Positions 41,174 through 64,000 of a DNA stretch of 64,000 bases are shown here, piece by piece; the stretch's first letter is position 1, and the number at the start of each line of letters is the position of its first letter. A program made the translations under genes and the position numbers. The stretch lies in assembly GCA_963842165.1 (NCBI GenBank), contig CAWJFK010000005.1, positions 326,070 through 390,069 of the forward strand, given 5' to 3'. Below the pieces are notes generated by a model. It did not search any database, was not told the origin of the DNA, and worked only from the letters and a program-made list of their open reading frames with translations. The DNA is from an uncultured Thermoplasmata archaeon (GTDB lineage: Archaea > Thermoplasmatota > Thermoplasmata > Lutacidiplasmatales > UBA184).

Positions 41174-41240
41174 TAAGCCTCGCTACCGAATCTTCGTAAA
41201 CATCGTGAGCCCAGGGCCAGGTCGGTACGACCCCCCGGCT

Positions 41241-41296
41241 CGCGCGGTGGCGCAGGGCCAGAGTCAGGGTCTGGATTCTGGGGGGCAAGCCGCGCG
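41241..41296 (+). other. 56-nt GC-clamped stem-loop containing a look-alike of the tRNA-Leu(CAG) anticodon arm
   Basis: CGCGCGG...CCGCGCG is a 7-bp closing stem. The inner CCAGA-GTCAGGG-TCTGG resembles CCAGA-TTCAGGG-TCTGG of the tRNA at 11869-11953. No D or T arms. Confidence 0.3.
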
Positions 41297-41328
41297 TGTT
41301 CTTCTTTGGGTATGCCTTTCTTTCCCGA

Positions 41329-43747: not shown

Positions 43748-43769
43748 CCCCGGGGCTCTTGCCCCGGGG
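43748..43769 (-). terminator. 9-bp perfect GC hairpin just downstream of the pilin-PstS gene
   Basis: CCCCGGGGC-tctt-GCCCCGGGG lies 31-52 nt after the stop at 43800. On the coding (minus) strand it is followed by 'TTCTCCTTCATT'. Confidence 0.35.
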
Positions 43770-43799
43770 GAAGAGGTTGGAATCGTACTCGTCGCCCAC

Positions 43800-45227
43800 T
43801 TAGATCTGATAGATGCTGATCTCGTTAGCCTCGGAGGCGAAGTTCTGGTTGTTGTAGGGGTCGATGGTGAACTGCAGCAGGCGCTGAACTTCACCGGTGG
43901 GTGCGCCGAGGGTGACCCACTGGAACGGCCGCCAGCCAACGTATCCCGTCGTCGCGGTCATTGGGACCTTGATCGCCGCCGCTATGGTCCCGCTCGCTCC
44001 GAGAGACGGCTGAATGGCCACTGACTGGCCCAGCCCCTCGACTCCGATGCCGCAGGCCGCCGTCGAGACGCCCGCGCAGGAGACTCCCGAGGTCGAAACT
44101 CGGGCGAGCCCGTCCGACGCGAAGCCGAGAGCGTCGGGGTGGGACGCGACGTAGGAGATCACTCCCGGGTTGCCGAGCTGAGCGGTGGTCGTAGCGATTC
44201 CGCAGCTCCCGAGCTGACCGTCCGAGCCGCAGCCGCCCCAGTTGTTCAACATCGCGGACAGGCCAGAGACCGGGGAGTTCCCCGATCCGATGCCGAGAAT
44301 CCGCGCCGTGAAGCTCTGGACCGTCCCGCCGGGGTCGCTCCGGGTAACCGTCTGGATGTTATCAGTGGCAGCATGCCCGGCGCCTCCGCCAGCGCAGACC
44401 GTCCAGCCGCAGGTTGACGTCCCAAGTACGGTCGCCGGGGCCGCGACGATGAGGTTACCGGTCGCGGTTCCAGAGGCCGGTGTGGCCGTGAAGGTTGTGA
44501 GCGGCGCCTCGGTGACGGCCGTGCCACCGCAAGCGGTGGCGCCGTTAACGCACGCCGGAATCTGGTCCCACGCGATCGGGGTGTTCGTCGCGATGGTGAT
44601 GCCGCTGGCCGGCGCCATACCGTTGATAGTCGCGGTCCAGATACCGGTGTAGGCGCTCGTGCTGGTCGTGATGTAGATCGAGAGCACCGTGTCCCAGCTG
44701 ATGCTGTACAACCCGTGGGGGCTGGCAGCGGGGGTCGCGCCCTGGGTGATCATGTCGACGCCGTCGTAGGCCACGGTCGTGATGACCGGGACACTGTTGC
44801 CACCCAAGGGGCACGCGTAGTTCGTCTGGAGGTTCGTGATGGTCTGGAGCGCTGACGTGGCTCCGATGTCCACCGCACCCGAACAGACCGCGATCATCCC
44901 TGCCCCAGATCCGCCCTGGTTGTCGCTAATCGCGATGTCCGAGTTGTTCTGCTCGAACTGAGCCACAGCGAGCTGGTCAAACGGGTAGACGGAGGTGCTC
45001 CCCCCGATGGTCACCGTGGTCTGGGCCGACTGGCCACCGATGCCACCGGTGACACTTCCCTGCCAGGCGACCAGCCAAAGGTAGAGCGCCGCCGCGGCCG
45101 CGACCGCGATGAGAATCAAGATCAACGTCGCCACGACGGGCGAAACTGCCTTGTTGTGGTTCTCACCACGGAGGCCCCGGAGGTACCTCATCTTTCGTTC
45201 TTTCTTCGTCGCATTCATTCCGCTCAT
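43800..45227 (-). CDS. PstS/PBP-like substrate-binding protein carrying an archaeal class III (type IV prepilin-like) signal peptide
   Basis: Intact 475-aa ORF. N-terminus '...RGENHNKAVSPVVATLILILIAVAAAAALYLWLV' has the DUF361/archaeal pilin-type charged-then-hydrophobic pattern. PBP_like_2-type core 'IGGSTSVYPFDQLAVAQFEQNN...NQGGSGAGMIAVCSGAVDIGATSA...VAYDGVDMI...RSDPGGTVQSF...GVISYVASHPDALGFAS', with Cys/Thr/Gly-rich insertions. Confidence 0.75.
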   Translation of the reverse strand: MSGMNATKKERKMRYLRGLRGENHNKAVSPVVATLILILIAVAAAAALYLWLVAWQGSVTGGIGGQSAQTTVTIGGSTSVYPFDQLAVAQFEQNNSDIAISDNQGGSGAGMIAVCSGAVDIGATSALQTITNLQTNYACPLGGNSVPVITTVAYDGVDMITQGATPAASPHGLYSISWDTVLSIYITTSTSAYTGIWTATINGMAPASGITIATNTPIAWDQIPACVNGATACGGTAVTEAPLTTFTATPASGTATGNLIVAAPATVLGTSTCGWTVCAGGGAGHAATDNIQTVTRSDPGGTVQSFTARILGIGSGNSPVSGLSAMLNNWGGCGSDGQLGSCGIATTTAQLGNPGVISYVASHPDALGFASDGLARVSTSGVSCAGVSTAACGIGVEGLGQSVAIQPSLGASGTIAAAIKVPMTATTGYVGWRPFQWVTLGAPTGEVQRLLQFTIDPYNNQNFASEANEISIYQI

Positions 45228-45267
45228 CTCTCTCGTTTTTCCCCCTTGTTGGTTGTTGTTGCGAGGC

Positions 45268-45287
45268 GGTCCCCGGTTGCGGGGACC
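45268..45287. promoter_or_regulatory. perfect 8-bp-stem inverted repeat in the divergent pilin-PstS / ATPase intergenic region
   Basis: GGTCCCCG-gttg-CGGGGACC lies between the divergent starts at 45227 (-) and 45471 (+). Confidence 0.3.
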
Positions 45288-45438
45288 ACGTTGCAGCTCG
45301 GGGACGGGTCCGGGCGTTCATATTCCGGGCCAAACGAGAAGCCGTAACGCGGCGAGGATTTCGGGCCCCACGGTGGCCGGAAGAATCGTGTTGTCAAACT
45401 CGGAGGTCTACGGTAACTACGGCTTCTCCGTGCGCAGT

Positions 45439-45446
45439 CCTTTATC
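45439..45446 (+). promoter_or_regulatory. TATA-like element upstream of the secretion ATPase gene (would give a leaderless mRNA)
   Basis: 'CCTTTATC' is centred about 28 nt upstream of ATG 45471. Confidence 0.35.
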
Positions 45447-45470
45447 GCGCTTCTACGAGTTCGGGACCGA

Positions 45471-47246
45471 ATGAACACCTCCGGGGCCGCCGGCCGCTCG
45501 GCCGTGTCGACGGAGGAGCGCTCCACCTCCTCTACGACCCGGGGAAGGGGCGCTCCTCCCGCACCCAAGGACCGCGCCAGCCTCCAGAGGGCCGCACGGG
45601 CGCTCGAGGCGCGGCTGATCACACGCGCGTCGATCCCGGAGAAGGTGCTCATCCAGGCCGAGCTGGGCTACATGCGGCGCCAGCTCCTTCAAGACCGGAA
45701 ATCGGTGGATGTCACCTACCCGGTCAACCCACCGTTCGCTTTCATCCGAATCTACTTCAGCGCCAAGGATAGCGAACTCCGCTACCAAGCCCTGGAGCCG
45801 ACGCTCAAGCCACACGAGGCCGAGCAGATCGTCCAGATACGGACGAAAATGGAATCGGTGATGTCCCAGGAGGAGCTGCCCGTACACGACGGACAATCGC
45901 TCGAGGAGTCACCGGCGCTGCGGGAGTACCTTCACAAGCGTTTCCTTACGGTCCTCGACCTCTACGACATCGCCGTTCCACCGAAGCGTCAGCCGGTGCT
46001 CCTCTACTACCTCCAACGCGAGTTTGTGGGCCTCGGGCGAACGGACTGCGTGCTACGGGACCCGTTCCTGGAGGACATCAGCTGCCTGGGCCCGGAGATC
46101 CCGCTGTACGTGTTCCATCGTGTCTACGGGTCGATGAAGACCAACGTGGCCTATGGGGGCGAGATCGAGCTGAACAAGTACATCTTCCGGCTCGCCCAGA
46201 TCGCGGGCAAGCACATCTCGATCTATCAGCCCATTCTCGACGCGACGCTGCAGGATGGGAGCCGCATCAACCTCACGCTCGGCACCGAGGTTACCCGCAA
46301 GGGGTCGACGTTCTCCGTCCGGAAATTCTCCCACGACCCGGTCTCGCCGATCGACCTGCTCAAGTTCGGCTCGGTGTCCGCGTTCGAGCTCGCCTACTTC
46401 TGGACCCTGGTCGAGAACCATCGTTCGCTGCTCATCTCGGGAGGGACCGCGGCCGGGAAGACGACGTTCCTCAACGCGATCTGCATGTTCGTCCGCCCCG
46501 AGGACAAGATCGTCTCGATCGAAGACACGCCCGAGATCCAGATCGACCACCAGAACTGGATCCAATCAGTTGCCCGGACGGGCTACGGCATGGCGAGCGG
46601 GATCAGCGGCGCTTCCGGGGTTTCTGGGCTGAGCGGAAACGTCCACCGTTCGGCCGGCACCGTCACCCTCTTCGACCTCCTCGTCGCAGCGCTACGGCAA
46701 CGTCCCGAGTACGTGATCGTGGGAGAGGTCCGGGGGACCGAGTCGTTTACGCTCTTCCAGGCGATCTCGGTCGGTCACGCGTCCATGTCGACGATCCACG
46801 CCGGTTCCATCGCGGAGCTTCTTCACCGCGTCGAGAACGAGCCGATGAACATCCCCCGCGTACTCTTCCAAGCCCTGGACGCCGTCGCCTTCCCGGCGCA
46901 GGTCGTGGTGCGGAACTCCCGCGTCCGACGGATCATGGGAGTGACTGAGATCCTCGAGGTCGACAGCGTCACGAACGAGATGCTGACGAACGACGTCTTC
47001 CACTGGGAACCGGCCACGGATTCGTTCGCCTACCTGGGACGGAGCTTCGTGCTCGAGCACATCGCCGAGCGGGGCGGGAAGGACATCGACTCCCTGTTGG
47101 CGGAGATGAGGCGAAAAGAACAGTACCTCCAACTGATGGATCGCCTCAACATGACGTACTACCGCGACGTGAGCCGCACGATCGCCGCCTACTACGTCGA
47201 CCCGAAGGAAGCGGTGGCGACCCTCGAAAAACGCATCGCCGGCTGA
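45471..47246 (+). CDS. type II/IV secretion-system ATPase of the archaeal FlaI/ArlI-TadA family
   Basis: Intact 591-aa ORF with Walker A 'ISGGTAAGKTTFLNA', 'IVSIEDTPEI', Walker B/Asp box 'RQRPEYVIVGEVRG' and His box 'GHASMSTIHA'. Confidence 0.9.
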   Translation: MNTSGAAGRSAVSTEERSTSSTTRGRGAPPAPKDRASLQRAARALEARLITRASIPEKVLIQAELGYMRRQLLQDRKSVDVTYPVNPPFAFIRIYFSAKDSELRYQALEPTLKPHEAEQIVQIRTKMESVMSQEELPVHDGQSLEESPALREYLHKRFLTVLDLYDIAVPPKRQPVLLYYLQREFVGLGRTDCVLRDPFLEDISCLGPEIPLYVFHRVYGSMKTNVAYGGEIELNKYIFRLAQIAGKHISIYQPILDATLQDGSRINLTLGTEVTRKGSTFSVRKFSHDPVSPIDLLKFGSVSAFELAYFWTLVENHRSLLISGGTAAGKTTFLNAICMFVRPEDKIVSIEDTPEIQIDHQNWIQSVARTGYGMASGISGASGVSGLSGNVHRSAGTVTLFDLLVAALRQRPEYVIVGEVRGTESFTLFQAISVGHASMSTIHAGSIAELLHRVENEPMNIPRVLFQALDAVAFPAQVVVRNSRVRRIMGVTEILEVDSVTNEMLTNDVFHWEPATDSFAYLGRSFVLEHIAERGGKDIDSLLAEMRRKEQYLQLMDRLNMTYYRDVSRTIAAYYVDPKEAVATLEKRIAG

Positions 47247-47252: not shown

Positions 47253-48202
47253 ATGTCGACCCCGGTGAAGAGCGCCGTCGGGACCCCGACCGGGGCGGGC
47301 GAGGAGACGCCTCCCAAGCCCGCAACGCCGCTCGTCTCGAGGTATCGCACCTTCTGTTACCGGCTCTTCGGCGAACGACTCGACACGGGGGAGGGGCAGG
47401 AAGCGATCACCGAACAGCTGCAGCGGGCGGGGATGAGCGTCACGCCCGGGATGCACTACTCGGTCGAGATCGTGACCTCGGCCATCGCCGCGGCGACCGG
47501 ATTCGTCATCAGCTTGTTGCTGTTCGACCTGGTCCTCCACAGCCCGCTCTGGTACCTATTCGTCCTCGTGATCACGGTGGTCGCCGCGGGGCGACGGTCG
47601 GCGGCTTCAGTTTCCTCCTGACGTCGCGCATCGCCAATCGGAAGGACGAGTTGGAGCGGGAGCTCCCGTTCACGCTCAGTGAGTTGTCGGTGCTCGCCAG
47701 CACCGGAACCTCCCCGATCCGGCTCGTTCGTCGAATGGCCGGGCGCGACCATGACCCGGCGATGACCGCCGAGTTCAAGCGGGTGGTCTACAAGACGGAC
47801 ATCCAGGGCAAGGACCTGATCACGGCCCTCGCCGAGACGGCCAAAGAATCCGCCTCAACCTCGGTGCGGGAGTCGTTCTGGGACCTTGCCAACATGATCC
47901 ACCAGGGGGGCAACCTCGACGAGTACCTTCGAGCCAAGTCGGACGACGTGATGAAGCTCCGCCGAGGCGTGCAGGAAGAGTTCATCGAGCGCCTCACAAC
48001 CTTCCTCGACATGTACGTCAGCCTCGTCCTCACCGGCATTCTGCTGCTCGCGGTGGCCGCGTTCCTGATCAACGCCCTGGGAAGCACGGCCGCCGGGCTG
48101 AATGCGAACGAACTCCTCTTGCTCCTGACGTTCGGCCTGGTTCCCGTTTCGGTCGCCATGACGATCATTCTGATCTCGATCGCGTACGCGAGGGCCGAAT
48201 GA
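47253..48202 (+). CDS. FlaJ/TadC-type platform protein, first T2SSF-like half (one frame change near 47588)
   Basis: ORF 47253..47621 (cytoplasmic N-terminus plus TM helices) joins at a G4 run to ORF 47651..48202 ('ELPFTLSELSVLASTGTSPIRLVRRMA...' followed by TM helices). Confidence 0.75.
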
Positions 48203-49647
48203 GGGCGCGGTCCCGGTTCCTCGGTCTTCTCGGGGTGCTGCTGATTTCCGCCTTGGCCCTTCTGGCGCCGCTGGGAAACGCGCGACCCGCCCCGTCCGCC
48301 GCCGGTCCCATCCTTATCTCGGTAGTCTCCCCCACGCCGAACAGCACCGTCTATTCCAGCACCCCCACGATCGTGGCGACCTACAACGACCTCGGCCCGG
48401 GGTCGATCAATCCGTCCGCCGTGTACATGCTCGTCGACGGGCAGAACATCACCGGGATCCAAGGATTCAATGTGAGCACCACCCAGGTCAGTTACACGCC
48501 CCCGACGATCATCGCACTGAACAACAGCAATCACTCGGTCACGGTCTTGGTCTCCGATACGGCCGGACGGTCGGCGTCCCTGACGTGGAACTTTACGGTC
48601 AACACGAACGCCGCTCCCGCGCCGAACCCCCTCGCCGGACTCAAGATCACGACGGTCCTGGTCTACATGGGGGTCGGTGCGGCCATCGCGCTCGGCGCCG
48701 TGGGCGGATACATCCTCTTCCTGAGGCAGACGGCCCGATTCACGTTCCGGAGATACTTCGCGACGCATCCGGTCGAGAGGAACTATCTCGTGATCTACAT
48801 TCCCTTCGCCGTCGCCTTCGCGTTCGTCCTCGTCGGGTTGCTCTACGTGTACTCGACCCCGGGTCTGCCCAGTAACGCCGTGGATTACGTCTTCATCATC
48901 GCCGTTTTCATCGCCCTCACGCTCTGGGGCATCGATTCGCGCCGTGAGATGATGCGGATCCGCGCCTACGAGCGGGCCTTTGCCCAGCTCCTCTTCGAGA
49001 TGGCCGACGCGATGCGGGGCGGCATCGACCCCGCCAAGGCGATCGTCGAATTGTCCAAGACGCACACTAACATCCTGCGGAAGAACCTCCGAATCGCCGC
49101 CGACGGCGTTCGCCTGGGTCGCCCCTTCGACGAGGTACTCCGGGATATGGTCGCCCCGATGAGGAGCAGGCTCATCACGCGATACGCGGGGTTGATCGCC
49201 GATGCGACATCCATCGGAGGCGAAACAGCGACCGTCGTCTACCGCGCGGCCAAGGACATGGACGACTTCGTCAAGATCGAAGAAGAGCGGGAGAAGAAGC
49301 TCTACCTACCGGTCGCGGTCATCTACATCGCCTTCGGCGTGCTGACGGCCGTTCTCGTGGCGCTCCTCTTCATCGCTCCCGAGCTCGGCAGCATCAACAT
49401 CAATTTCCTCAGCTCCAGCCATCCGCTTTCCTCGGCGGGATCGGCGTCGTCGTCGTCGGTCGCACCGGTCCCCCACCTCGCGTTCTCGGCCCTGAAGGAG
49501 CGGTTCTTCGAGCTCATGCTCATCAACGCCTTGGGTACCGGCGCCATCATTGGGGCCTTCACCGAAGGGCGCGCCCGCTACGGGATCCTCCATTCCCTCG
49601 CGCTCGTGGCGGGCACGGCCATGGTCTTCGCGATCCTGTTTCCGTGA
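48199..49647 (+). CDS. FlaJ/TadC-type platform protein, second T2SSF-like half, with N-terminal signal peptide and extracellular Ig-like domain
   Basis: ATGA overlap with the upstream gene. Signal 'FLGLLGVLLISALALLAPLG'. Ig-like segment 'ILISVVSPTPNSTVYSSTPTIVATY...VDGQNITG...HSVTVLVSDTAGRSASLTWNFTVN'. Then TM helices and 'LLFEMADAMRGGIDPAKAIVELS...'. Confidence 0.75.
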   Translation: MRARSRFLGLLGVLLISALALLAPLGNARPAPSAAGPILISVVSPTPNSTVYSSTPTIVATYNDLGPGSINPSAVYMLVDGQNITGIQGFNVSTTQVSYTPPTIIALNNSNHSVTVLVSDTAGRSASLTWNFTVNTNAAPAPNPLAGLKITTVLVYMGVGAAIALGAVGGYILFLRQTARFTFRRYFATHPVERNYLVIYIPFAVAFAFVLVGLLYVYSTPGLPSNAVDYVFIIAVFIALTLWGIDSRREMMRIRAYERAFAQLLFEMADAMRGGIDPAKAIVELSKTHTNILRKNLRIAADGVRLGRPFDEVLRDMVAPMRSRLITRYAGLIADATSIGGETATVVYRAAKDMDDFVKIEEEREKKLYLPVAVIYIAFGVLTAVLVALLFIAPELGSININFLSSSHPLSSAGSASSSSVAPVPHLAFSALKERFFELMLINALGTGAIIGAFTEGRARYGILHSLALVAGTAMVFAILFP

Positions 49648-50671: not shown

Positions 50672-50758
50672 CGGAGATTCCGTAGTTGGAAGGCTACTCC
50701 GTAGACTACCGGACTCTACACGCCACGTTGTTAAACGACCTAGCCTCCTGTCGAGCGC

Positions 50759-51388
50759 GTGAACATCCCCGTCGAGGTACCGGGCCTCGACACCATCATC
50801 CCGGAGATCGAGGAGGGGCGGCTGCTCGTCGTCGAGAGCGGCGCCGACTCGGCCAAGAGCTACTTCGTCCGGAGGCTGAGCCTGAGCGCCGGCCGGGTCG
50901 GATCCCCGGTGACGTTCGTAACCTCCCGGGACGAGGCGGAGGTCCGGGCGCTCCTCGCCAGCGAGGCGGACGAGGGCCAGCGCTCCGAGGGCTGGGTCCG
51001 CATCATGGAACGGGACGGGATCGAGAGCTTCGAGGAGTTCGAACCGGCGGGGGGTCTACTGACGGTCGATTCGTTCTCCTACCTGACGCTCAACCTCCCA
51101 CCGGCCGAACTGGCCTCGTCCCTCCGGCGGCTCCGGACCGCGTGTCGAACCCGGAACATGACGGCCATTCTGGCGACCGATCGAGGGATGCTGGATACCC
51201 GGTCGGAAGCGGTCGTGACCCACCTCTCCGATGGGTTCTTGCAGTTCCACGCCCGAGAAGGTCCGGAAGGGGTGCTGCGATTCCTCCGCATTCCCAAGTG
51301 GATGGATGGGAAGTTTGTCGACCGGAATATCTATTATGAGTTCGACGGCAAACGTATCATGATCGACCTGCGGCGACGGGTGCTCTAG
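50759..51388 (+). CDS. KaiC/RecA-fold FlaH(ArlH)-like protein with degenerate Walker A
   Basis: 209-aa ORF with a GTG start. 'GLDTIIPEIEEGRLLVVESGADSAKSYF' aligns to the KaiC/FlaH 'GxxGxGKS' region, but the second Gly is Ala. Confidence 0.6.
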   Translation: MNIPVEVPGLDTIIPEIEEGRLLVVESGADSAKSYFVRRLSLSAGRVGSPVTFVTSRDEAEVRALLASEADEGQRSEGWVRIMERDGIESFEEFEPAGGLLTVDSFSYLTLNLPPAELASSLRRLRTACRTRNMTAILATDRGMLDTRSEAVVTHLSDGFLQFHAREGPEGVLRFLRIPKWMDGKFVDRNIYYEFDGKRIMIDLRRRVL

Positions 51389-51401: not shown

Positions 51402-52472
51402 GTGCCGACCGGGTCCTACGAGCGCTACGGTCTCACCAGCAACCCGTTCCGGGATCTGGCGAGCGAGAGCCTCGAGGACGTGAGCCTCTACCACGTCAAC
51501 CAGGAAGTGGACGAGACCCTTCGGACGATCAAGGACGAAGTCTACGACAAAGAGAACCGGGCCGTCGTGGCCATCGTCGGCCCTCACGGGGCCGGAAAGA
51601 CCGAACGGCTCCTGGTCACCGCGGCGGAGGCCAAAGAGCATGGCGCGTTCGCGGTGTACTACGACGTGCCCGCCAAGACGGCCAAGGTCCTCCGGGGCGT
51701 GGCCACCCAGTTCCAGGCGGCGGCCGCCGCCCGGACCAAGGGTAAGCTGTTCGCTTCCCAACCCCCTTGGGTCAAGGCGATGGCGTCGCTCGCCAAGATC
51801 GGCGACGAGAAGTACGACCCCAAGGACGCCGGCAGAATCGTCGGACAAGCGCTCAACGGCACCGCCCCCTCCTTCCTGCTGCTAAACGACCTGAACAACC
51901 TCATCGCGTCGAAGGAGGTCGACGCGTTCGCGAAGGTGATCCAGGAGATCACCGACACGATCAAGCCCGGCGTCCTCCTCATGTTCACCTGCTATCCGAG
52001 CTATCTCGCGTGGCTCACCGTCAACCATCCGGCCCTCTCCTCTCGCATCAACCGCTCGCTCACGTTGGCCGGGTTCAGCGACGAGGAGGCCGCCCTCCTC
52101 CTCGCGAAGAAGCTCTTGGTCAAGCGCCTGGTCGAGGACCTCGACCCGATCTACCCGTTCGACCGGGAAGCGATCCACCTGCTCAACCAGGCGGCCTTGT
52201 CGAACCCGCGACGACTGCTCGAATTGGCCGACCTCGCCGTCGAGTATGGCGCTGCTCACCGGTCCTATCGGGTGGACGCGGAGGTCGCGAACGCGGTGAT
52301 CGGCCAACGAGCCGCGAGCGTGGCCGCGAACACCGCATCGGCCAAGGCGAGCGCCGGGATCGGTCCCCCCCGCGGCCCCCGCCCTGCGGACGAAGGCGAT
52401 GGGCGCGCCGGCAGCCCCAGACACGAAGGGTGGCTGGGCCGAGAGCTAGCACCTACGCCGGCGCGGGCGTGA
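51402..52472 (+). CDS. AAA+/P-loop ATPase, ExeA(GspA)/AAA_22-like
   Basis: N-terminal 'YGLTSNPF' motif and Walker A 'IVGPHGAGKTE'. 356 aa, GTG start, with a disordered Gly/Pro/Arg-rich tail. Confidence 0.6.
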   Translation: MPTGSYERYGLTSNPFRDLASESLEDVSLYHVNQEVDETLRTIKDEVYDKENRAVVAIVGPHGAGKTERLLVTAAEAKEHGAFAVYYDVPAKTAKVLRGVATQFQAAAAARTKGKLFASQPPWVKAMASLAKIGDEKYDPKDAGRIVGQALNGTAPSFLLLNDLNNLIASKEVDAFAKVIQEITDTIKPGVLLMFTCYPSYLAWLTVNHPALSSRINRSLTLAGFSDEEAALLLAKKLLVKRLVEDLDPIYPFDREAIHLLNQAALSNPRRLLELADLAVEYGAAHRSYRVDAEVANAVIGQRAASVAANTASAKASAGIGPPRGPRPADEGDGRAGSPRHEGWLGRELAPTPARA

Positions 52473-53469
52473 GCAGGACCGAGAGGTCGATCGCCTGCTC
52501 GGCGATCTCGGAGGCGTAGCCCGCGGTCCGGCCGAGGCTGTCCACGATCGTGCCCAGGGCCAGGAGTTCCTCACCCCGCTTGGTCGACACCCGGTGCGAG
52601 AGGGAATCGATCAGCTTCTTGTGCTCGCCTTCCGCGTCGATCGCCTGATTCGCGGCGTCGATGTCCCGCGTGATGAGGGCCGTGAACGCTCGATCGAGGA
52701 GGTTGACCGCCGACGCGCGCGCTTCGTCGATCTCCTTCGCGAGCTTGGGGTCGAGCGGCTTTCCGCCGCTCAGTGCTGGGTAGGTCGCGGCGATGCGTTT
52801 CGCGTGGTCGCCGATGCGCTCGATGAGCTTCGCGATGAGCCGGTGCGCGTGGATCGCCAGCGAGTTTCCTCCGTTGCCCTGCGGCTGGGGGGAGGAATGC
52901 GCGAGGTGGTACTGCTTCGAGATCATCCAGAAGAGCCGGCTGACGTCCTGGCTGCGGAGCGCGACATCGTTGGCGAGGCTCTCGTTCCCCGTTTCGATCG
53001 CGGTCACGGCGTCCTCCAGCATCGCGCGCACGGTGAGGTGCATCCGACGCAGACACTTGTCCGAACTCAGCTCCGACGGGTCGGAGAGGTCCTGGATCAC
53101 GATGGAGTTCTTCGCCTCTTCGATCACCTCCGGTCCGATCACGAGCCGACAGAATTCCCGGGAGACCCGACGGACGAAGGGCGCGCGGTCCGGCGAGAAC
53201 CGGATCTCGATGAGGCCGAATCCGGAGGTGTAGGCGCCGATGAGCTTGCGCAGGAGATGGTCCCGCTCCTCCTCGCCTCGCTCCTGGAAGAGCATCCGCC
53301 GGTCGGCGGGCTTCTCCCCCGCCCGAGGCCGCACCGAAACCGAGCCGTCCGTCTCGGTTTCGACGAAGAGCGTGTCCCCGGCCTTGAGGCCAGCGTGGAT
53401 CACCCAACGTTTCGGCAGGGAGACAAGATAGGTCGACTTGCCGGCGAGCTGGAGTTTCCGTCCCTCCAT
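52453..53469 (-). CDS. phoU: AbrB/SpoVT-domain plus PhoU-domain phosphate-uptake regulator (archaeal type)
   Basis: Intact 338-aa ORF. It has an N-terminal swapped-hairpin 'KSTYLVSLPKRWVIHAGLKAGDTLFVETETDGSVSV' and two PhoU repeats ('IERIGDHAKRIA', 'LGRTAGYASEIAEQA'). Confidence 0.85.
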   Translation of the reverse strand: MEGRKLQLAGKSTYLVSLPKRWVIHAGLKAGDTLFVETETDGSVSVRPRAGEKPADRRMLFQERGEEERDHLLRKLIGAYTSGFGLIEIRFSPDRAPFVRRVSREFCRLVIGPEVIEEAKNSIVIQDLSDPSELSSDKCLRRMHLTVRAMLEDAVTAIETGNESLANDVALRSQDVSRLFWMISKQYHLAHSSPQPQGNGGNSLAIHAHRLIAKLIERIGDHAKRIAATYPALSGGKPLDPKLAKEIDEARASAVNLLDRAFTALITRDIDAANQAIDAEGEHKKLIDSLSHRVSTKRGEELLALGTIVDSLGRTAGYASEIAEQAIDLSVLLTPAPA

Positions 53470-53516
53470 GCAACGGCCTTCGACAACTCAGAGCTTGTCG
53501 GCAGATAAGCGAAATA

Positions 53517-54630: not shown

Positions 54631-55405
54631 CTACGCGGCCATCGCCGGGTTGGTGACCGACACGCCGAGCTGGCGGGCGAGGTGCGGTAGGTCGGGCGCG
54701 ACGGCGGCCGCGCCTCCGGCCAGGAATCGGGCCTCGCTCTGGGTGGAACCGGCGGCCTCCGAGGGGTCGGGCAGTACCTGCATAGAAACGCACCCGCGCC
54801 GCGACGGCGCATTCCGCGTCGATGAGGTGGTCCCCGACGAAGACGGCGCGGTCGATCGGGACCTCCATCTCCTGAAGGAGCCCGAGCAGCGCCTCGGGGG
54901 AGGGCTTGGAAGGTCCGGAGAAGCTCCGACTCCGCAGGTAGGGGAAGTACTTCGCGAGGCCGGTTCGGTTGAGAGCACCGCGCGCGAACTCCTCCGAGCT
55001 GCGGGTCAGGATCCCGAGGCGGAAGCCGCGCTCGGTCAACCCCTTCAGCAGTGGATCCGCGCCAGGCCGCGCGACCGTGCGCGGGAGCGCCTCCATCTCG
55101 ATCGCGTCGATCGCACGGTGGAACTCCGTCTCGAACCGGTACAGGACCCCGTCGCTCGCACCGGAATTGTGGATCGCTTCGCGCGCCTGTTCCAAGATCC
55201 GGTGGATGGGGTCGTTCACGGAGAGATGGCCCGGGGTCACCCCGGACTTTTCCGCGATACGGATCGCGGTGGCGCGCATTCGGCCGAAATCGTGGTGGGA
55301 GAGGACGAGCGTCCCATCGAGGTCGAAGCCGACTCCGAGGAGAGGTTCGAGGTACTTGGGGTCCGGGTCTCGAGGCGGCATGTAAGCACCGGCGCCACCA
55401 GACAC
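54631..55405 (-). CDS. HAD-superfamily phosphatase (one frame change near 54785)
   Basis: Motif I 'GFDLDGTLV', 'ILTRS' and 'FVGDHLIDAECA'. The C-terminal roughly 50 aa continue in ORF 54631..54978. Confidence 0.65.
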
Positions 55406-55554
55406 GCCGCCGGGCTCCCGTTAAGGGTTTCCATCCAAAGGAACCCCGCCTCCGGCGACATCGTTCCTCGGCCCCGCGGCTTCGGGGCATTCATCGAGGG
55501 AACTATGGAAAAACCGTGGCCAAGATTCAAGCCCCTCTCCGGGGTCGGGACGGT

Positions 55555-56124
55555 GTGACGAACATCTACCTCAATCCCTACTTCCTCGCCGGGGCGGCCC
55601 TCTGGGTGTTCGTGGGCTGCGTGGCCTACTTCTGGCTGGTCTCGTTCCTCTTCGGAGCCGGCTATCAGGGGGCCCCACGGAAGTCGGTCGACACGATGTT
55701 CCGCTTCGCTCGGGTGGCTCCTGAAGACACCTTGTTCGAGCTCGGGGCAGGGGTCGGGGCGATCGCGTTCCCCGCCGCGCGCGAGTACGGTGCCCACGTG
55801 GTGGCCGTCGAGATCGAACCCCTCCGCATCGGGATCATGCGGCTTCGCCGGGCGATGGGTCCGGCCGCGGACCGAATTGAGCTCCTTCGGACCAACATGT
55901 ATGGGATGGACTTCCGGCCCGCGACGGTCGTGACCGCCTTCCTCTGGCCCGGGGCGATGGCCCGGCTCAAACCGAAGTTCGAAAGGGAACTTCGAACGGG
56001 AACACGAGTGGTCAGTCGGTGCCACCCGATCATCGGATGGACCCCGACCCTCTATGACCGGGAGTCCGACGTGTACCTCTACCGATGGCCAGAGGCGCTG
56101 GCCCCCCCACCGCCCCCTGCCTGA
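55555..56124 (+). CDS. membrane-anchored class I SAM-dependent methyltransferase
   Basis: Tail of track ORF 55051..56124, from GTG 55555. N-terminal TM 'LAGAALWVFVGCVAYFWLVSFLF', then 'LFELGAGVGAIAF' (motif I). Confidence 0.6.
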   Translation: MTNIYLNPYFLAGAALWVFVGCVAYFWLVSFLFGAGYQGAPRKSVDTMFRFARVAPEDTLFELGAGVGAIAFPAAREYGAHVVAVEIEPLRIGIMRLRRAMGPAADRIELLRTNMYGMDFRPATVVTAFLWPGAMARLKPKFERELRTGTRVVSRCHPIIGWTPTLYDRESDVYLYRWPEALAPPPPPA

Positions 56125-57134: not shown

Positions 57135-58692
57135 TTAGCCAGAAGTCGGGGGTCGCTCGAGAGTGACGACCGACTCCCGCAAGAGAAAGCTCCGCCGCTG
57201 GCCGCTCCGGCGCGTCCGGGCGATCTCGACGCCCCGGAGCCGGTACCCGAGGCGCTCGCCCATCCGTGCGAGAATGAGGTCCCCCGGCACGTACGCTCCC
57301 GCCAGGAGGGAATCCCCGACCACGATCACGAACTTCCCGCCCGGGCGTAGGGAACGATAGACCCCGGCCAGGACGGGGTGGAGGTCCGCGAAGTACCGGT
57401 GCACGACGGCGTGCATGTCGTCGCGTCGGTACGAGCCCTTCCGGGCGACGTTGTCCCGAATCCGCGGCAGCAGCTCGTCGAGCCATGGGTCGAACGCCTG
57501 ACCGACCCCGAGGTAGGCGTTCGTTTCGGAACGGGGAAGGTTGTCGCACGCCACTTCGGCCGCTCGAAGCGCGGCCAGGTCTCCGTAGGAGCGAGCGTAC
57601 CCGAGCCAAGCGAGGTCGACCTTGTAGTTCATCACGTAGTCCATCCCGTTGACGTAGGGCGGACTCGTGATCGCGAGGTCGACGGAGTCGGCCGGCCTGG
57701 GCGCGGTCCGCGCGTCACGCTGCTCGATGACCGCCGGTGGTCCCCATCGCTCGCGTTCCGCCCCCATCTCCTCGAGGTCGACCCGCATCTCGGCCAGCGC
57801 GTTCTTGAATCGCACGAAGGGCGGGTCACCTCCCTCCTCGACGGGACCCCGGCGGTAGCCGAGGCACGGGGAGCGATGGAGCCGGCTCGAGGGGATCAGC
57901 ACCCGTCCGAAGGCGACCCGAAGGGCATCGGCCTCGGGGGTCCCCTCCGGCGGCAGAGCGTCCCGGAGCCGGGTCAGGTCGCGGAGCGCTCGGGAAGTGA
58001 ACTGGCGCCGAGTCTCGCGCAAGAACGGTAGGGGGCCGGACGGCGTTCGCTCGGCGCGGGCCACGACCCGCCGCCCGGCCGCTTCGAGCTTCTGTCCATC
58101 GAGCTCGAAATGGGTCTTTACGCGGGCCGCAAGCACGGCCGGAGCGAGGATCTCCGTCCCCCACGCGCGGAACCCGGCACGGCGGGCCTCGACCAGCGTA
58201 GTCACCGCTCCCCGCGAAAGGGTCCAGGACCGTGGCGCCCGGCCGCAACTCCGCCGCCGAGAGCACTCCCGCGACGAACTCGGCCGAGTACCCCTGCACG
58301 TACGGCCACCAGCGATGGACCGGGCGGGCTTCGTTCGAGCGGAACGTGATCGGTCCCGTGTACTCCCCGAGGGAGACCCCGTTCTCCCGCTGGAATCGGT
58401 CGACGAACATCTGAGGGTCGGCGAAATCCGCCCCACCGGTCAGCTCCGTGAAGTCGTGCCAGACCCAAAGGCCCCGGCCCATCCGGGTCACCGTGCCGGC
58501 GGCGGAGAGCCGGTCCAACTCGGTCGCTACGGCCCCGGCGTCTCGCTGGACTCGGTTCGACAGCTGCTTCACCGTGGCCCCGAGGGCCCCGGATTCGCCC
58601 AGCGCGTGCTCGAGGGCGTTCGTGAGGTTCCGATTGGAGGACGGGGCCGCATCGGGGCCCGGGGCTTTGGGGGCGGTCGGCCGGACGCTCAC
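57135..58692 (-). CDS. DNA (N6-adenine or N4-cytosine) methyltransferase with N-terminal winged-helix domain (one frame change near 58200)
   Basis: ORF 57826..58692 gives 'ATVKQLSNRV...LSAAGTVTRMGRGLW' and motif I 'VLDPFAGSG'. After the shift ORF 57135..58436 gives 'TTLVEARRAGF...' and motif IV 'DLAITSPPYVNG'. Confidence 0.7.
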
Positions 58693-59560
58693 GCCGCCGC
58701 TTCCAGGGGCGGCACAATCTCCCGGGGACGGTTGGCCCGGAGTTGCTGGACGATGCGACGGCGCTGACGACGCTGTTCCTCCTCGAGGGATCGCGCCCAG
58801 CGCGTCCCTCGGGCCGGTCGAGCGAGGTTCTCCGCGACCTCGAGGTCATGGAGCCGGCCGAGCCGCCGTTGGAGCGCACGAAGGGGAGCCGGCGGGGGGA
58901 CGGGCTTCACCGGGTCGAGCGTGACCGAGAGGTCGGAGAGGTGACGCCAGTTCCGCATCCGGATCCGGAGGCGGTGGAGCCGCCGGGGGGACGGCTTGCG
59001 GCGAGCCCGGCGGTGCGCATCTCGGACTTCTTCGCGGCCTTCGTCGCGGATCCGGTTGAGGTACCCGTCGAGGTGCTGGACCCGTTCCGCGGGGGGTGGG
59101 CATGAAGTCCGGTGCGGATCCCCTCGAACAGCCCCGCGTCCCGTTCGGCGCGCAGGAACACCCGGAGGAGCTCCCGCCCGACCCGGGCGTCATCACCGAG
59201 CCGCCGTCGGACCTGCGTGAGGCGGGCGCGCTCCCGCGGGCCCCCCGGCAACGATCGGTCCGCGAGGAGGCTCAGCGTGACGTCGCGGTCCCGGACCCCT
59301 CCGACCAAGCGCGCGAGGCGCTTCAGCCGCCGGTCGTACCCCTCGAGCTCGCTCCGCGGGGCTTTTGGGAGGAGCCGGGCCCAGACGGCGATCCCGACCC
59401 GCAGGCGCCGGAGGTCGCGGTGCAGCCGGTGGAGCGCCGAGGCGGCCGGCCGGGGCGCTACGACCAGCCGGTCCAGCTCGTGGAGCGTCAGGTCCAAGCG
59501 GTGCTCGAGCTCCTTCACGAACTCGGTGACGGCGCGCGGTGGGGAGCGTGGACGAGGCAT
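58689..59560 (-). CDS. CHAD-domain protein (one frame change near 59093 in a G6/C6 run)
   Basis: Helical Arg/Leu-rich repeats 'ALHRLHRDLRRLRVGIAVW...YDRRLKRLARLVGGVRDRDV'. After the shift it reads 'RRLHRLRIRMRNWRHLSDL...LQRRLGRLHDLEV', the histidine/arginine pattern typical of CHAD (polyphosphate-binding) domains. Confidence 0.65.
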
Positions 59561-59666
59561 AGAAACTCTGGGAACGACAGCAAACCCAGCGGGGGGAAAA
59601 CCGTTTCCCAGCCGTTTTCCGGCGATTCCGCACTAGTTGTATTAGTAGCTCGGAGCATGCGTAGGC

Positions 59667-61228
59667 GTGGAGCGCTCCCGGTCGGCAGAGGCCGGCGGTC
59701 GGGAGGAGCGCTCGCCTCCTCGGGCGGCCCACCGGTTGGGGGTCATCGACATCGGTTCGAACACGGCCCGGTTCGTCATCTTTGATACGTCCCCGGTGGG
59801 GGCGGTCCGGGCCACCTACGAAGACAAGGAGGTCCCTCGGCTCGGCGCGGGGACCGGACCCGACGGCCAGCTCTCGGACGAAGCGATCCGCCGAGGAACG
59901 GTGGCGGTCAAGCGGTTCGCGAAGCTCGTGCGCTCGCTCGACGTGCCGCGCACGCTGGCCGTCGCGACGAGCGCGGTCCGCGACGCGCCGAACGGCGGCG
60001 AGTTCGTCCGAGCCGTCGAGCGCGGCACGGGGCTCTTATTGCGAATCCTCTCCGGGGCGGAGGAAGCTCGCTACGGGTACCTCGGCGTCGCGAGCGCCTG
60101 GGAGCTCGAGAACGATGTCGTCCTCGACTTGGGGGGCGGCTCGCTCCAGCTGGCCGAGGTGCGCCGGGGCGAACTCCGCAGCACCGTCAGCCTCCCGCTG
60201 GGAGCGCTGCGGCTCTCCGAACGATTCTTCGAGCACGACCCTCCCAAGAAGCGCGAGATGGACCAACTGCGGGAACACATCCGAGACGCCCTCGACCCCG
60301 TGTTCGAGACGTTCGGGGAGCGGTCCCGCCGGTTGTTCGGGATCGGCGGCACCGTGCGGTCGCTCGCTCGGGCGGCGATCGAGTTCCGAAGCTGGCCGAT
60401 CGGCCGGGTCCATGGCTACCCGCTCTGGGATTACGACATCGAGGCCCTCGAGGAGCTCCTGTGGGAGATGCCGTCGGAGAAGCGCCGGGCCGTTCCGGGG
60501 ATCGGGTCCGATCGGGCGGACGTCGTGCTCGCCGGCGTCGTGGTGTTCCAGGAACTGCTCCGCGCCGCGAAGGCGGACCACATCGTCGTCTCCGGACCGG
60601 GATCCGGGAAGGGATCGCCCTTGAAGCCGTGGGGGCGAAGCTGCCGGCGCCGGCCGTGACGCTCGCGGAGCGCTCGGTGATCGCCGCGTCCGAGTCCTTC
60701 TCCTTCCGGCTCGACCACGGCCGCGCGGTGACCTCGACCGCGCTCGACCTCTTCGAGGTCCTGGCGGAACGCCACCAGTGGGGCCGCAGCGAGGGGCTCG
60801 CGCTCCGGGTCGCCGGATGGATGCACGACTCGGGGGTCGCCATCGACCTGTGGCGGCACGCGCACCACTCGTCCTACCTCATCCGCAACTACCCGCTTAT
60901 GGGGCTCGACCAGCGGGAAGCGCTGCTCGCCTCGATGGCGGCGTACGTCCATGAGGGAGGCCCGCTCCCTTCGGAGTGGAAGAAGGGCTTCCAACCGATC
61001 TTGGGCGGGGACGACCTCGACACGGCCCGGCGTCTCGGTGCGATCCTCGAGGTCGCCGAGATCACCGAGCCCTTCCACCCGAGATTTTCAAGTTCCGGCG
61101 ACGGCCGAACCCTTACGGTATCCTTTTCAACCTCATCCAGTACCGCCCCTCCCAGCCGGGTCGGGGAGAAAGTGGCGAAGACGATCCCCCGGGTGTTCGA
61201 CGTCGAGGTGAAGATCCGTGATTCGTGA
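59667..61228 (+). CDS. ppx: Ppx/GppA-family exopolyphosphatase (one frame change near 60598)
   Basis: 'LGVIDIGSNTARFVIF', 'AVATSAVRDAPNG', 'EEARYGYLG', 'VLDLGGGSLQL' and 'GIGGTVRSLA'. After the shift it reads 'GIREGIALE...', followed by an HD-like C-terminal domain ('GWMHDSGVAIDLWRHAHHSSYLI'). Confidence 0.85.
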
Positions 61229-61920
61229 GAACCCCTCCCCGAAGCACGGGTACCCCGGTCGACTCTTCGTCTTCGAGGGTCTCGACGGGAGCGGGAAGTC
61301 GACCCAGGCCGCCCTGCTCGGCAAGTGGCTCGCCGCGTCCGGCTACCGCGTCTTCAGCACGGAGTGGAACTCCTCCGAGCTGGTCTCGAGCACGATCCGC
61401 CGCGGCAAGAAGAAGGGCCTGCTCACGCCCACAACATTCTCCCTCATGCACGCCGTCGACTTCGCCGACCGGTTCGAGCGGACGATCCTGCCGCCGCCCG
61501 GGCCGGGTACATCGTCGTCTGCGACCGCTACTCCTACACCGCCTTCGTCCGTGACGCGGCCCGCGGGTGCGACCCGGACTGGGTGCGGACGATCTACTCG
61601 TTCGCCCCGACGCCCGGACGTCGCGTTCTACTTCCGCGTGCCGGTGCGGGTCACGCTCGAACGCAAGATCGCCTCGCGCCTCAAGATCAACTACTACGAG
61701 GCCGGCATGGACCTCGGGCTCTCGGAGGATCTGCACGACAGCTACGAGCGGTTCCAGGGGCGGATCAAGAAGGAGTACCGACCGGATCGCGGTCACCGAC
61801 CGGATGACGATCGTCGACTCGACCCGCGCGGTGGAGCCGATCCAGGCCGAGCTGCGGAGCGCGGTCCGGCCGATCCTGCAGGGATTCCCGAAGGGGGAGG
61901 CGTTGCTCCATGACGAATAG
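61218..61920 (+). pseudogene. thymidylate-kinase-like P-loop kinase, copy 1 (3 frame changes near 61495, 61615, 61775); candidate polyphosphate-kinase subunit
   Basis: P-loop 'FVFEGLDGSGKSTQ', 'VVCDRYSYTAF' (in ORF 61325..), 'DVAFYFRVPV', 'NYYEAGMDLGLS', and tail 'DRIAVTDRMTIVDSTRAVEPIQAEL' (in ORF 61567..61920). Confidence 0.65.
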
Positions 61921-62632
61921 CACGTACGGGACGCGCCTCCCTGGACTCCCGCACGGGGAGCTCACCGGCAAGCTCGTCGTGATCGAAGGCGCCGACGGGT
62001 CCGGACGGAGCACCGAGGTCGCCCTCTTGAAGCAGCATCTCGAGATCGCGGGCCACGCGGTCGTCGACACCGGGCTGCGCCGCTCGAACCTCGTGAGCGA
62101 GGAGATCGACCGGGCGAAGCAGGGCCACACGCTCGGCGCGACGGCGCTCGCCCTCCTCTACGCCGCCGACTTCGGCGACCAGCTCGAGAACAAGATCGTC
62201 CCGGCGCTCTCCGCGGGGAGCACGGTGCTGGCCGACCGGTACATCTACACGCTCATGGCCCGCGCGATCGTCCGGGGGGCCTCCCGCGACTGGGCGCGCC
62301 ACCTGTACAGCTTCGCGTTCCGGCCGGACCTGGTCGTCTTCCTCGACGCGCGACCCGAGATCGTCCTCCACCGGTCGATCGGGAAGTACGGGAGCCTCGA
62401 CTACTGGGAGTCCGGGATGGACCTCTGCCTCTCGCGCGACCTGTTCGAGAGCTTCTTCCTCTACCAGGACCGGATCGCGCGGGAGTTCGAGTGGATGACC
62501 CGCGAGAACCGACTTCCACACGGTCGACGCGAACCGCCGACCCGAGGAGGTCCACGCCTCCGTCCGGGACCTCGTGATGCCGCTGTATGGGGGCGCCCCC
62601 AAGGCGCGCCTCCGGCGCCGGGGCCCGGCCTA
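61910..62632 (+). CDS. thymidylate-kinase-like protein, copy 2, with P-loop Lys replaced by Arg (at least 1 frame change near 62505; 3' end uncertain)
   Basis: 'VVIEGADGSGRSTE', 'VLADRYIYTLMA', 'DLVVFLDARPE' and 'DYWESGMDLCLS'. After the shift it reads 'DFHTVDANRRPEEVHASVRDLV'. As assembled no stop occurs before it runs antisense into sixA. Confidence 0.6.
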
Positions 62633-63153
62633 CGCCGCCCGGGCCAGCTGCTTCCTCGTAAGGAGCCAGCGCAGACGCGCCGCCCCCGGGCGGACCGTCG
62701 CCGGGAATTCGAGGCAGGCCGCGGACGGCTTCCCGAGCCGCGCGAACGGCGTGCCCTCCCCCGTGAGCGCGAGCCCGACGAACTCGGCGAGGGTCGGTTC
62801 GTGGCCGATGATGACGACCGCCTGGCCGGACCGGGCCGCCGCACTCAGGCGATCGAAGATGGGGGGCGCGAGCGCGCCGGGGCGAGCTCCTCCCAGAAGT
62901 CGAGCCGCGGGGTCGGCTCGAGGGCCGAGCGCAGGAGCTCGGCGGTCACCCGGCAGCGCACGGCAGGGCTCGACGCGAGGCGGACCCGCGAGCCCAGGTA
63001 GCGGACGAGGCCCCGGGCCGCCGTCCGGGTTTGCTCGGCTCCTTTCGGCGTGAGGGGCCGGACGGAGTCGTCGGGCCAGCGGCCCGGGTCCCGCAACGCC
63101 GCAGGCCCGTGACGAACGACCACGACTCGGACGGATCGGGTAGGGCGAACCAT
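62630..63153 (-). CDS. sixA: SixA-type phosphohistidine phosphatase (one frame change near 62880)
   Basis: 'VVVVRHGPA' (RHG motif) in ORF 62845..63585. After the shift it reads 'AVVIIGHEPTLAEFV' (second catalytic His) and ends at TAG (complement of 62630-62632). Confidence 0.65.
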
Positions 63154-63169: not shown

Positions 63170-64000
63170 CTAGCGAGCTGCCGTGGGGAGAAAACGCTCT
63201 CGCCGAGTCCCTCCGGGGGATGCTCGGAGGGGTCGGGGCGGGTCGAGAGGAACGACCGGGATCGAGCGGTCGAGCGCCACCTGCACAATGTCCTGCGCGT
63301 AGGCGACCGTGCGGCCGATCGACTCGATGATACGGGCGACGGCGGCCGCCGTGGCCGGTGGCATGACACCCCCGCCCACCCCCGGAAGGAGGCGGTCGGC
63401 GAGCGCCTCGCCCGACGCGGCGAGCGCGTTCCCGGTATCCAAGAGCTCGTTGGCTCGGTCGCCGTTCCGCGCCGCGAGGGCCCCCTCCAGGTGGTCCATC
63501 GACTGGGTGTGGAACTGCCGGAGAGGATCATGGGGCCCTGACCCTGGGGCAGCGCGACCAGTCGGGGGCCGGTGGTTCCGAGCACGACCGCATGGTCGGC
63601 GATCCGCTCGAGGCTGCGGGCGACGGTCCAGGAACCGAGCAGCTCCGAGGCCGGGCCCTGGATCCCGAGTCGGAGCGTCGCGATGCGCTGGATGTACCAG
63701 GCCTCGCGGTCGACCTCATCGTCCCGGCGCTCCCAGTAGCCGTCTGTCCCCGAGCGGCAGGTGCGACCAGGCGTCCACCGCTTCGCGGTGGAAATTGAGG
63801 ACCAGCCGCCCCATGCGCTGGACCCGCTGGTCGAGCGAGACCGGGCTCTCGAACGAGAGGTCGTGGAGGCGGATCGAGTCCCGTTCCTCGGAGACGATCT
63901 CGGGCTGCCGCGTCCGCCGGCAGAACGTCCGGACCACCTCGCGGGTGCCGGTCGAGAGGGTCGGGCGCTCTCGGACCACGAACTTGGGAGCCCCGGCGAG
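63170..64000 (-). pseudogene. second AbrB-PhoU-like regulator paralogue, several frame changes, 5' end outside window
   Basis: Fragments are 'TREVVRTFCRRTRQPEIVSEERDSIRLHDLS...' (ORF 63716..63979), 'SLERIADHAVVLG' and 'VARIIESIGRTVAYAQDIVQVAL' (ORF 63170..63499). They parallel the 52453..53469 protein. Confidence 0.5.

Follow-up and report, generated by a model that had tools for sequence, protein, structure and literature searches.

Does the gene cluster near the right-hand end of this stretch of DNA encode a polyphosphate (polyP) kinase (PPK) built from two relatives of thymidylate kinase (TMPK)? The stretch, which we call the window, comprises 64,000 nucleotides (nt) of contig CAWJFK010000005.1 (assembly GCA_963842165.1) from an uncultured Thermoplasmata archaeon. 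A preliminary description had placed here a CHAD-domain gene, the exopolyphosphatase gene ppx and two consecutive TMPK-like genes (hereafter gene 1 and gene 2), and had referred to a heteromeric PPK of TMPK-like subunits encoded beside ppx in Sulfolobus. All four genes are present where they had been put, their Pfam families hold, and that enzyme is indeed published, as SaPPK3 of Sulfolobus acidocaldarius, with Saci_2019 as cPPK3 and Saci_2020 as rPPK3 (Hofmann et al., JBC 2026, PMC12995831; bioRxiv 2024.08.28.610084). The homology of the pair to PPK3, which had been raised as a possibility, is upheld subunit by subunit, by E values, by clades with 100% bootstrap support and by ten of ten class residues in each protein. 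From these sequence comparisons, we put the probability that the window pair is orthologous to cPPK3 and rPPK3 at about 0.95. It is likely that the two proteins also form a polyphosphate kinase that operates like the Sulfolobus one, with function transferred by orthology.

Saci_2019 makes polyP from ATP, and Saci_2020, which is inactive alone, brings a roughly ten-fold gain in activity in a 1:1 alpha2-beta2 complex (PMC12995831). Neither of them phosphorylates dTMP, and SaPPK3 favors ATP formation out of ADP and polyP. The residues of its cleft are conserved in cPPK3 only, and the inactivity of rPPK3 was ascribed to the replaced arginine of the DRX motif. The operon of S. acidocaldarius holds the genes for SixA, PPX, cPPK3, rPPK3 and a CHAD protein (Saci_2021), and CHAD was included in the published neighborhood analysis. 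Before PPK3, the Crenarchaeota were without a known polyphosphate kinase, and homologs of PPK1 and PPK2 are lacking there (PMC12995831). The two TMPK-like genes of the window are as follows, with lengths in amino acids (aa) after correction of the reading frames.

61218..61920, forward strand: TMPK-like gene 1, predicted cPPK3 ortholog; 233 aa corrected; PF02223, E 5e-24
61910..62661, forward strand: TMPK-like gene 2, predicted rPPK3 ortholog; 249 aa corrected; PF02223, E 1e-20

The best match of gene 1 among PDB sequences was STK_15430 of S. tokodaii (2plr/5h70), which aligned over the whole length with an E value of 2.4e-58, as compared to 1.7e-12 for the best canonical Tmk structure. Its 120 best protein matches are intact, 231–236 aa long and 77–94% identical, and the intact homolog P0001 reaches 94% identity. 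Those of the 120 that carry an organism name in their source are labelled “Thermoplasmata archaeon”. Gene 1 has the P-loop GSGKST with the Walker-A lysine K27, the motifs TEWNSS and GKKK, the DRY motif with R104, and the lid arginines R149 and R154. The basic residues K36, R62, K64, K65, R85, R88, R112 and R116 are present as well. Six basic residues are found only in c-type subunits (K36, R62, K65, R85, R88, and R154); all are in gene 1 and missing from gene 2, which fits the published polyP cleft conserved in cPPK3 alone, the assignment of residues to the cleft following the text of PMC12995831. Gene 1 scored higher against c proteins (median 242 bits) than against r proteins (median 161 bits). 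At ten near-fixed alignment columns that differ between c and r (the class columns), gene 1 carries the c residue every time (K27, E49, S52, G63, H78, R85, A109, A162, F179, and Y187).

The residues expected for dTMP binding are replaced. In pairwise HMMER alignments to the Tmk of T. thermophilus, the stacking-Phe position is occupied by His78 in gene 1 and Tyr84 in gene 2, and the dTMP-phosphate-Arg position by Phe82 and Phe88, respectively. In canonical Tmk, we assign the former position to stacking on thymine and the latter to contact with the phosphate of dTMP. The YQG motif of canonical Tmk is missing in both genes. By these comparisons, gene 1 is identified as a cPPK3 ortholog in a PPK3 clade that is apart from canonical dTMP kinase (dTMPK).

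Gene 2 behaves likewise, matching STK_15430 with an E value of 1.1e-34 and the best true Tmk with 1.5e-11. It is 88% identical to its counterpart (T2) in the relative locus L082, its P-loop reads GSGRST, in which the Walker-A lysine has become arginine, and it carries the r residue at ten of ten class columns (R33, G55, R58, A69, Y84, Q91, L115, S168, Y185, and F193). The preliminary description had pointed to a block common to both genes, which is confirmed as YYEAGMDLGLS in gene 1 and YWESGMDLCLS in gene 2 and is the lid motif of the PPK3 clade. A single-sequence AlphaFold2 model of gene 2 had a mean confidence (pLDDT) of 39.6 and was discarded, while an alignment of 32 rows of c-type homologs raised the pLDDT to 61.8. 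A Foldseek search with the latter model returned ST1543 chains as its top eight matches (E 6e-12 to 2e-10, TM 0.62–0.67), followed by ordinary Tmk structures at about 1e-6; this may be taken as supportive at best of the PPK3 assignment. Taken by its sequence, gene 2 is identified as an rPPK3 ortholog.

The C-terminal tail of gene 2 is basic and Pro-rich. Such an Arg/Pro-rich tail of 25–30 aa is found in Thermoplasmata r subunits (window positions 62590–62661; also L001 and L082), where the sequence encoding it runs into the 3′ end of the SixA gene, and r subunits of Sulfolobales (208–224 aa) are without it.

The family was searched for in genomes representing one species each, by means of aligned cPPK3-type proteins and two exact peptide patterns. 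At least 559 species genomes hold a relative; the best 80 loci were kept and, with L001, gave 81 loci. S. acidocaldarius is not among the scanned loci, and the Sulfolobales references are Metallosphaera, Stygiolobus and a Sulfolobales metagenome-assembled genome (MAG). A second TMPK-like gene directly follows the c-type gene in 77 of the 81 loci, in Archaea as well as in Bacteria; PPX adjoins the pair in most of them and SixA is frequent. This is what came of the synteny survey that had been proposed along with the four genes. Among the best 80 loci, 12 belong to Thermoplasmata MAGs with the arrangement of the window, and relatives are also found among the best loci in Methanocella, Nitrosopumilaceae, Verrucomicrobiota, Acidobacteriota, Chloroflexota, Bacteroidota, Planctomycetota and others. 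With E values below 1e-30, there are 334 clusters at 50% identity. A CHAD gene also adjoins the pair in Nitrososphaera (L006) and, by a weak match, in Metallosphaera (L003); these were detected by Pfam on selected open reading frames (ORFs), whereas tblastn with the Thermoplasmata CHAD gave matches in close relatives only.

A neighbor-joining tree with Kimura distances was computed for 160 subunits with 200 bootstrap replicates and without a canonical-Tmk outgroup. The split between c and r had 100% bootstrap support, and gene 1 fell within the Thermoplasmata c clade and gene 2 within the Thermoplasmata r clade, with 100% each. Deep branching is poorly supported (e.g., 1–52% for Thermoplasmata plus Methanocella). 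The c and r halves of the tree are broadly congruent, and therefore c and r genes seem to move together. The earlier view that the two genes are paralogs of each other and not canonical tmk is in agreement with their separate c and r clades and with their far closer match to STK_15430 than to Tmk, and its expectation that this enzyme class reaches a different archaeal lineage is borne out by the Thermoplasmata host. The locus L076 (DAIDCO010000074.1) is recorded as “bacterium” while its subunits nest in the Thermoplasmata c and r clades and it has the full Thermoplasmata gene order; this bin is probably mislabelled.

The same set of loci separates the two classes by their P-loops. The Walker-A motif is GSGKS in 81 of 81 first subunits and GSGR(S/T) in 77 of 77 second subunits, so the family-wide mark of the r class is the exchange of the Walker-A lysine for arginine. 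The DRY motif is retained in 74 of the 77 second subunits, and ADGY is found only in the three Sulfolobales sequences. The loss of the DRX arginine in rPPK3 thus looks lineage-specific, confined to Sulfolobales, and not family-defining. In P-loop kinases, a Walker-A Lys-to-Arg exchange usually abolishes phosphoryl transfer. Found in all r subunits, the exchange still gives the second subunit the look of a pseudo-kinase, for a reason other than the DRX loss. The main text of PMC12995831 makes no mention of this exchange in the second subunit. Natural c–r fusions were also found in the 50%-cluster library (P0121, 460 aa; P0122, 696 aa; P0133, 680 aa), and their second P-loop is degenerate (EGSDYSGHYQ, EGAHHAGVT, and EGADKHATAR). 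Two of the three fusions have a C-terminal HD domain like domain III of Ppx.

Several observations weigh against the assignment. Gene 1 is just about 46% identical to the cPPK3 homologs of Sulfolobales (L002–L004), and gene 2 is 32–36% identical to Sulfolobales rPPK3 and scores similarly against their c subunits. Gene 2 also retains the DRY arginine (as ADRY), so the replacement of the DRX arginine, a test of membership for the regulatory subunit, is not found in it. Gene 1 scores 89 bits with the dTMP-kinase equivalog TIGR00041, over the cutoff of 83.25 bits, and every gene of the module is frameshifted in the deposited sequence.

The TIGR00041 score bears on the simplest other explanation, namely that one or both genes encode ordinary dTMP kinases and that their adjacency to ppx is incidental. 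Gene 2 comes close to the same cutoff with 83.1 bits, both genes match Pfam Thymidylate_kin, their orthologs are named “dTMP kinase” in databases, and a Pfam sweep over roughly 82% of the window revealed no other tmk. However, both genes are 23–46 orders of magnitude closer to the cPPK3 homolog than to true Tmk, the positions assigned above to dTMP contacts hold His or Tyr and Phe, YQG is missing, and gene 2 is without the Walker-A lysine. In addition, the Sulfolobus orthologs have no dTMPK activity, and ppx with the tandem pair is conserved across phyla. We regard this explanation as very improbable. A different concern is raised by the retained DRY motif: the pair may be a PPK3 homolog that departs from the Sulfolobus model, with a second subunit that is active or binds ligand, or with a complex that prefers other nucleotide acceptors. 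DRY is present in 74 of 77 second subunits, including that of the window, and was lost only in three Sulfolobales; the r class conserves R110, R118, R122 and R155, and the Thermoplasmata r subunits have the extra basic C-terminal tail. These features have to be set against the Walker-A exchange, which is invariant (77/77) and usually abolishes transfer, against the missing c-specific basic cleft residues and against the fully degenerate second P-loop of the fused forms, which together make such a departure unlikely.

A related and more specific idea concerns the r subunit outside Sulfolobales, which could bind nucleotide or polyP and share in catalysis or processivity instead of being a dead scaffold, because it has the DRX arginine, the lid arginine, most core residues, the invariant Walker-A arginine and, in Thermoplasmata, the basic tail. 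This is doubtful, though conceivable; if true, the Sulfolobus mechanism would fail to generalize to most of a widespread, mostly soil-borne family. The reading that we prefer is a PPK3 of the Sulfolobus kind. By analogy with SaPPK3, the catalytic subunit would bind ATP or ADP at its P-loop and polyP in its basic cleft. Its transfer of the terminal phosphate would run in both directions and favor the one that yields ATP from ADP and polyP. Its partner, a putative pseudo-kinase with its Walker-A Lys-to-Arg exchange, would activate the catalytic subunit through an alpha2-beta2 complex. We propose that the 11-nt overlaps described below couple the translation of ppx, cPPK3 and rPPK3, which would therefore be made together. 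The CHAD protein would decorate polyP, and the SixA-like phosphatase and the flanking PhoU proteins may tie the module to phosphate signaling.

The frameshifts raise the further question of whether the module is alive in its host. Indels were mapped with the intact syntenic relative L082 as reference, at about 80% DNA identity. Single-base indels were found in CHAD (one), ppx (one), gene 1 (three), gene 2 (two) and SixA (two to three): a 1-nt deletion near 59085 in CHAD, a 1-nt deletion at 60596 in ppx, and indels at 61498, 61613 and 61778 in gene 1 and at 62511 and 62624 in gene 2. Further positions in the window are 54779, 57185–58204, 62875, 63528 and 63745. Over the 12 kb compared with L082, the density is approximately one per 300–600 bp, and nearly all genes of the window are broken. 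After correction, CHAD, ppx, gene 1 and gene 2 encode 290, 520, 233 and 249 aa, equal to the lengths of their orthologs.

Nine to ten single-base indels over CHAD, ppx, both kinase genes and SixA are what a decaying pseudogene cluster would present, with real frameshifts and a module that is dead in the host. However, unrelated neighbors (a HAD hydrolase, a DNA methyltransferase, and PhoU) carry like indels at similar density, conservation runs on past both sides of every frameshift, and the ratios of nonsynonymous to synonymous substitution (dN/dS) against L082 are low (CHAD 0.09, ppx 0.08, gene 1 0.07, and gene 2 0.12). Orthologs of 87–94% identity are intact on at least three contigs, and the pattern is typical of an error-prone assembly consensus. 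Gene decay is highly improbable on these grounds. Because the corrected frames are colinear with intact orthologs, dN/dS is low and unrelated neighbors are hit too, the frameshifts are best read as errors of the assembly consensus. Programmed frameshifting was considered and rejected, as the indels have no common motif and are found in all neighboring genes. The indels are ubiquitous, and therefore an ORF-based reading of this window requires frameshift-aware translation.

With the frames corrected, the genes and the region that surround the pair are as follows.

58689..59560, reverse strand: CHAD-domain protein; 290 aa corrected; PF05235 over the full profile length (53.8 bits, E 3.4e-14)
59561..59666, no strand: divergent intergenic region between CHAD and ppx
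59667..61228, forward strand: ppx, exopolyphosphatase Ppx/GppA; 520 aa corrected; PF02541 (E 8e-58), plus PF21447 (domain III)
62630..63153, reverse strand: SixA-like phosphohistidine phosphatase; PF00300 (35 bits against a cutoff of 21.7), with the RHG motif
63173..64000, reverse strand: PhoU-domain protein, truncated by the end of the window; PF01895 (39.5 bits)
52456–53487, reverse strand: second PhoU protein, PhoU plus AbrB/MazE; PF01895 (74.7 bits)

The CHAD protein is 82% identical to the intact 290-aa ortholog in L082, the Ppx proteins of the two loci are 90% identical, and the SixA-like proteins are 81–87% identical across two frames. Ppx scores 281.8 bits with the exopolyphosphatase model TIGR03706 (under the cutoff of 307), and the SixA-like protein, a member of the histidine phosphatase superfamily, scores 62.6 bits with TIGR00249 sixA (under the cutoff of 74.5). 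The overlaps that had been reported between ppx and gene 1 and between gene 1 and gene 2 proved exact, 11 nt each: the ppx stop TGA (61226–61228) overlaps the GTG start of gene 1 at 61218, and the gene 1 stop TAG (61918–61920) overlaps the ATG of gene 2 at 61910. The end of gene 2 needs revision, since it had been set at about 62632, and positions 62630–62632 are the stop of the SixA-like gene, which is convergent with gene 2; the actual stop is TAA at 62659–62661, and the 3′ end of gene 2 overlaps the SixA gene by 32 nt.

This layout, with a divergent CHAD gene, ppx and the c and r genes, a convergent SixA gene and then PhoU, is identical in 8–10 Thermoplasmata loci. The SixA-like gene is at the same position in 11 Thermoplasmata loci, and the PhoU position is syntenic in L001, L049, L052, L055, L066, L068, L076, L082 and L083. 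As in the published PPK3 operon, ppx, SixA and CHAD all adjoin the pair in the window and likewise in 10–12 Thermoplasmata loci. The cluster had been called a complete polyphosphate module; the gene set stands, and SixA and PhoU also belong to it, while “complete” is overstated for what is seen in 64 kb.

In the divergent region, TATTAGTAG lies at 59640–59648, approximately 24–27 nt upstream of the ppx GTG, and TATTAG(T/A) is kept at equal distance in the window, L082, L001, L083, L055, L076 and L080. It is likely an archaeal TATA box, judged by its sequence and position, and the ppx mRNA would then be leaderless or nearly so. A GGGAAA-N4-TTTCCC inverted repeat at about 59594–59609 is kept only in the closest relatives (L082, and partly L083 and L001), so the TATTAGTAG element is the more widely kept of the two across Thermoplasmata loci.

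On the other side of CHAD, an N6/N4 DNA methyltransferase gene of about 516 aa (57144–58692, reverse strand, with a frameshift at 58204) has a GTGA overlap with the CHAD stop. Because of this start/stop overlap, it appears to be co-transcribed with CHAD. The methyltransferase is also beside CHAD in L082 and L083, and L001 has a YCII gene there instead. A small ORF resembling S-adenosylmethionine (SAM) methyltransferases lies upstream of it (55400–56124, forward strand).

The wider window was swept with Pfam on stop-free segments selected by third-position GC content (GC3), covering about 82% of its length, with much of 41.2–43.8 kb falling outside. This portion yielded neither PPK1 nor PPK2 and no third Thymidylate_kin gene, which accords with the earlier statement that neither PPK1 nor PPK2 is visible here. 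A phosphate theme recurs, with the second PhoU gene at 52.5–53.5 kb and three PstS-like binding proteins at 38–45 kb. The PstS-like (PBP_like_2)/pilus cluster comprises segments at 38301–40148 (forward strand), about 41200–43800, 43803–45317 (reverse strand), and 45417–47243, 47755–49644 and 50744–51385 (all forward strand). One PstS-like protein has an archaeal class III (pilin-like) signal peptide, KAVSPVVATLILILIAVAAAAALY, and the PstS-like proteins adjoin a T2SSE ATPase, a T2SSF membrane protein and a KaiC-like ATPase. This cluster resembles a bindosome or a type-IV-pilus-like assembly for phosphate-binding proteins, 10–20 kb from the polyP module. At the far end, positions 1–8000 have the look of sulfur metabolism, with DsrE_2, a SAM methyltransferase, OsmC, an ArsR-type helix-turn-helix protein, TusA, FlpD/MvhD, and two HdrA-like Pyr_redox_2 + 4Fe-4S proteins, and may be an sHdr-type sulfur oxidation set.

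Part of what this locus displays is already published, namely the PPK3 class as such, its composition of two subunits and the company of PPX, SixA and CHAD genes. The link to CHAD, which the preliminary description would have counted as an extension, is not one, as Saci_2021 in the Sulfolobus operon is a CHAD protein. New are the Thermoplasmata host, the occurrence in at least 559 species genomes and the confinement of the DRX-loss hallmark to Sulfolobales. The abstract of PMC12995831 gives the distribution as mainly Nitrososphaeraceae and Sulfolobaceae with a few bacteria, and its Results text describes a mainly bacterial PPK3 clade from 47,545 GenBank genomes. Thermoplasmata are not named in the running text of either version of the paper (JBC, bioRxiv), and our literature search returned no paper joining Thermoplasmata, polyphosphate and thymidylate kinase. 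In a clade of uncultured Thermoplasmata, the same predicted two-subunit enzyme is a fixed trait together with the same accessory genes, and PPK3 relatives occur far more widely than one would gather from the published summary.

These findings also matter for annotation. NCBIfam held no PPK3 model as of June 2026, and PPK3-type genes are labelled “dTMP kinase” by Pfam, TIGRFAM and NCBI; metabolic reconstructions from such MAGs will therefore overlook polyP synthesis and may include a spurious tmk. The c subunit can be annotated by GSGKS, TEWNSS, His78 and Arg85, and the r subunit by GSGR(S/T), Gly55, Arg58, Tyr84 and Gln91. The hallmark published for the regulatory subunit needs correction in the light of these residue signatures.

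Like SaPPK3, the window has two TMPK-derived genes in tandem immediately after ppx, c then r, along with the same accessory genes for SixA, PPX and CHAD. In both systems, P-loop, DRX motif, lid and basic cleft are intact in the catalytic subunit, and the second subunit is without the cleft residues and the Walker-A lysine. The systems differ in their hosts, Thermoplasmata for the window and Thermoproteota for SaPPK3, and in gene orientation, since CHAD is divergent and SixA convergent in the window, while the SaPPK3 operon has five co-directional genes. The window r subunit keeps the DRX arginine, whereas Sulfolobales r subunits do not; the lid motif is Y(Y/W)E(A/S)GMD in the window and PQEAGADIF in Sulfolobales. 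The basic C-terminal tail of the r subunit and the flanking PhoU genes are also features of the window and not of SaPPK3.

Three further systems are close enough for comparison. STK_15430 (ST1543) of Sulfurisphaera tokodaii (2plr, 4nzy, 4rzx, and 5h70), the best PDB sequence match of both window proteins, was deposited as “dTMP kinase” and represents the cPPK3 type only; structures of the r subunit and of the complex are unsolved. The two-domain class II PPK2 of P. aeruginosa (PA3455), an analogy drawn in PMC12995831, likewise combines an active P-loop unit with a degenerate paralogous unit that aids oligomerization. However, it belongs to the PPK2 fold family, of which the window has no Pfam match, and the units of the window are separate polypeptides. 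Canonical thymidylate kinase (TIGR00041/PF02223) shares its fold, P-loop, DRX motif and lid with the window pair, but it forms a separate clade, its dTMP-binding residues are replaced in the window pair, and the latter is arranged as a c/r tandem together with polyP genes.

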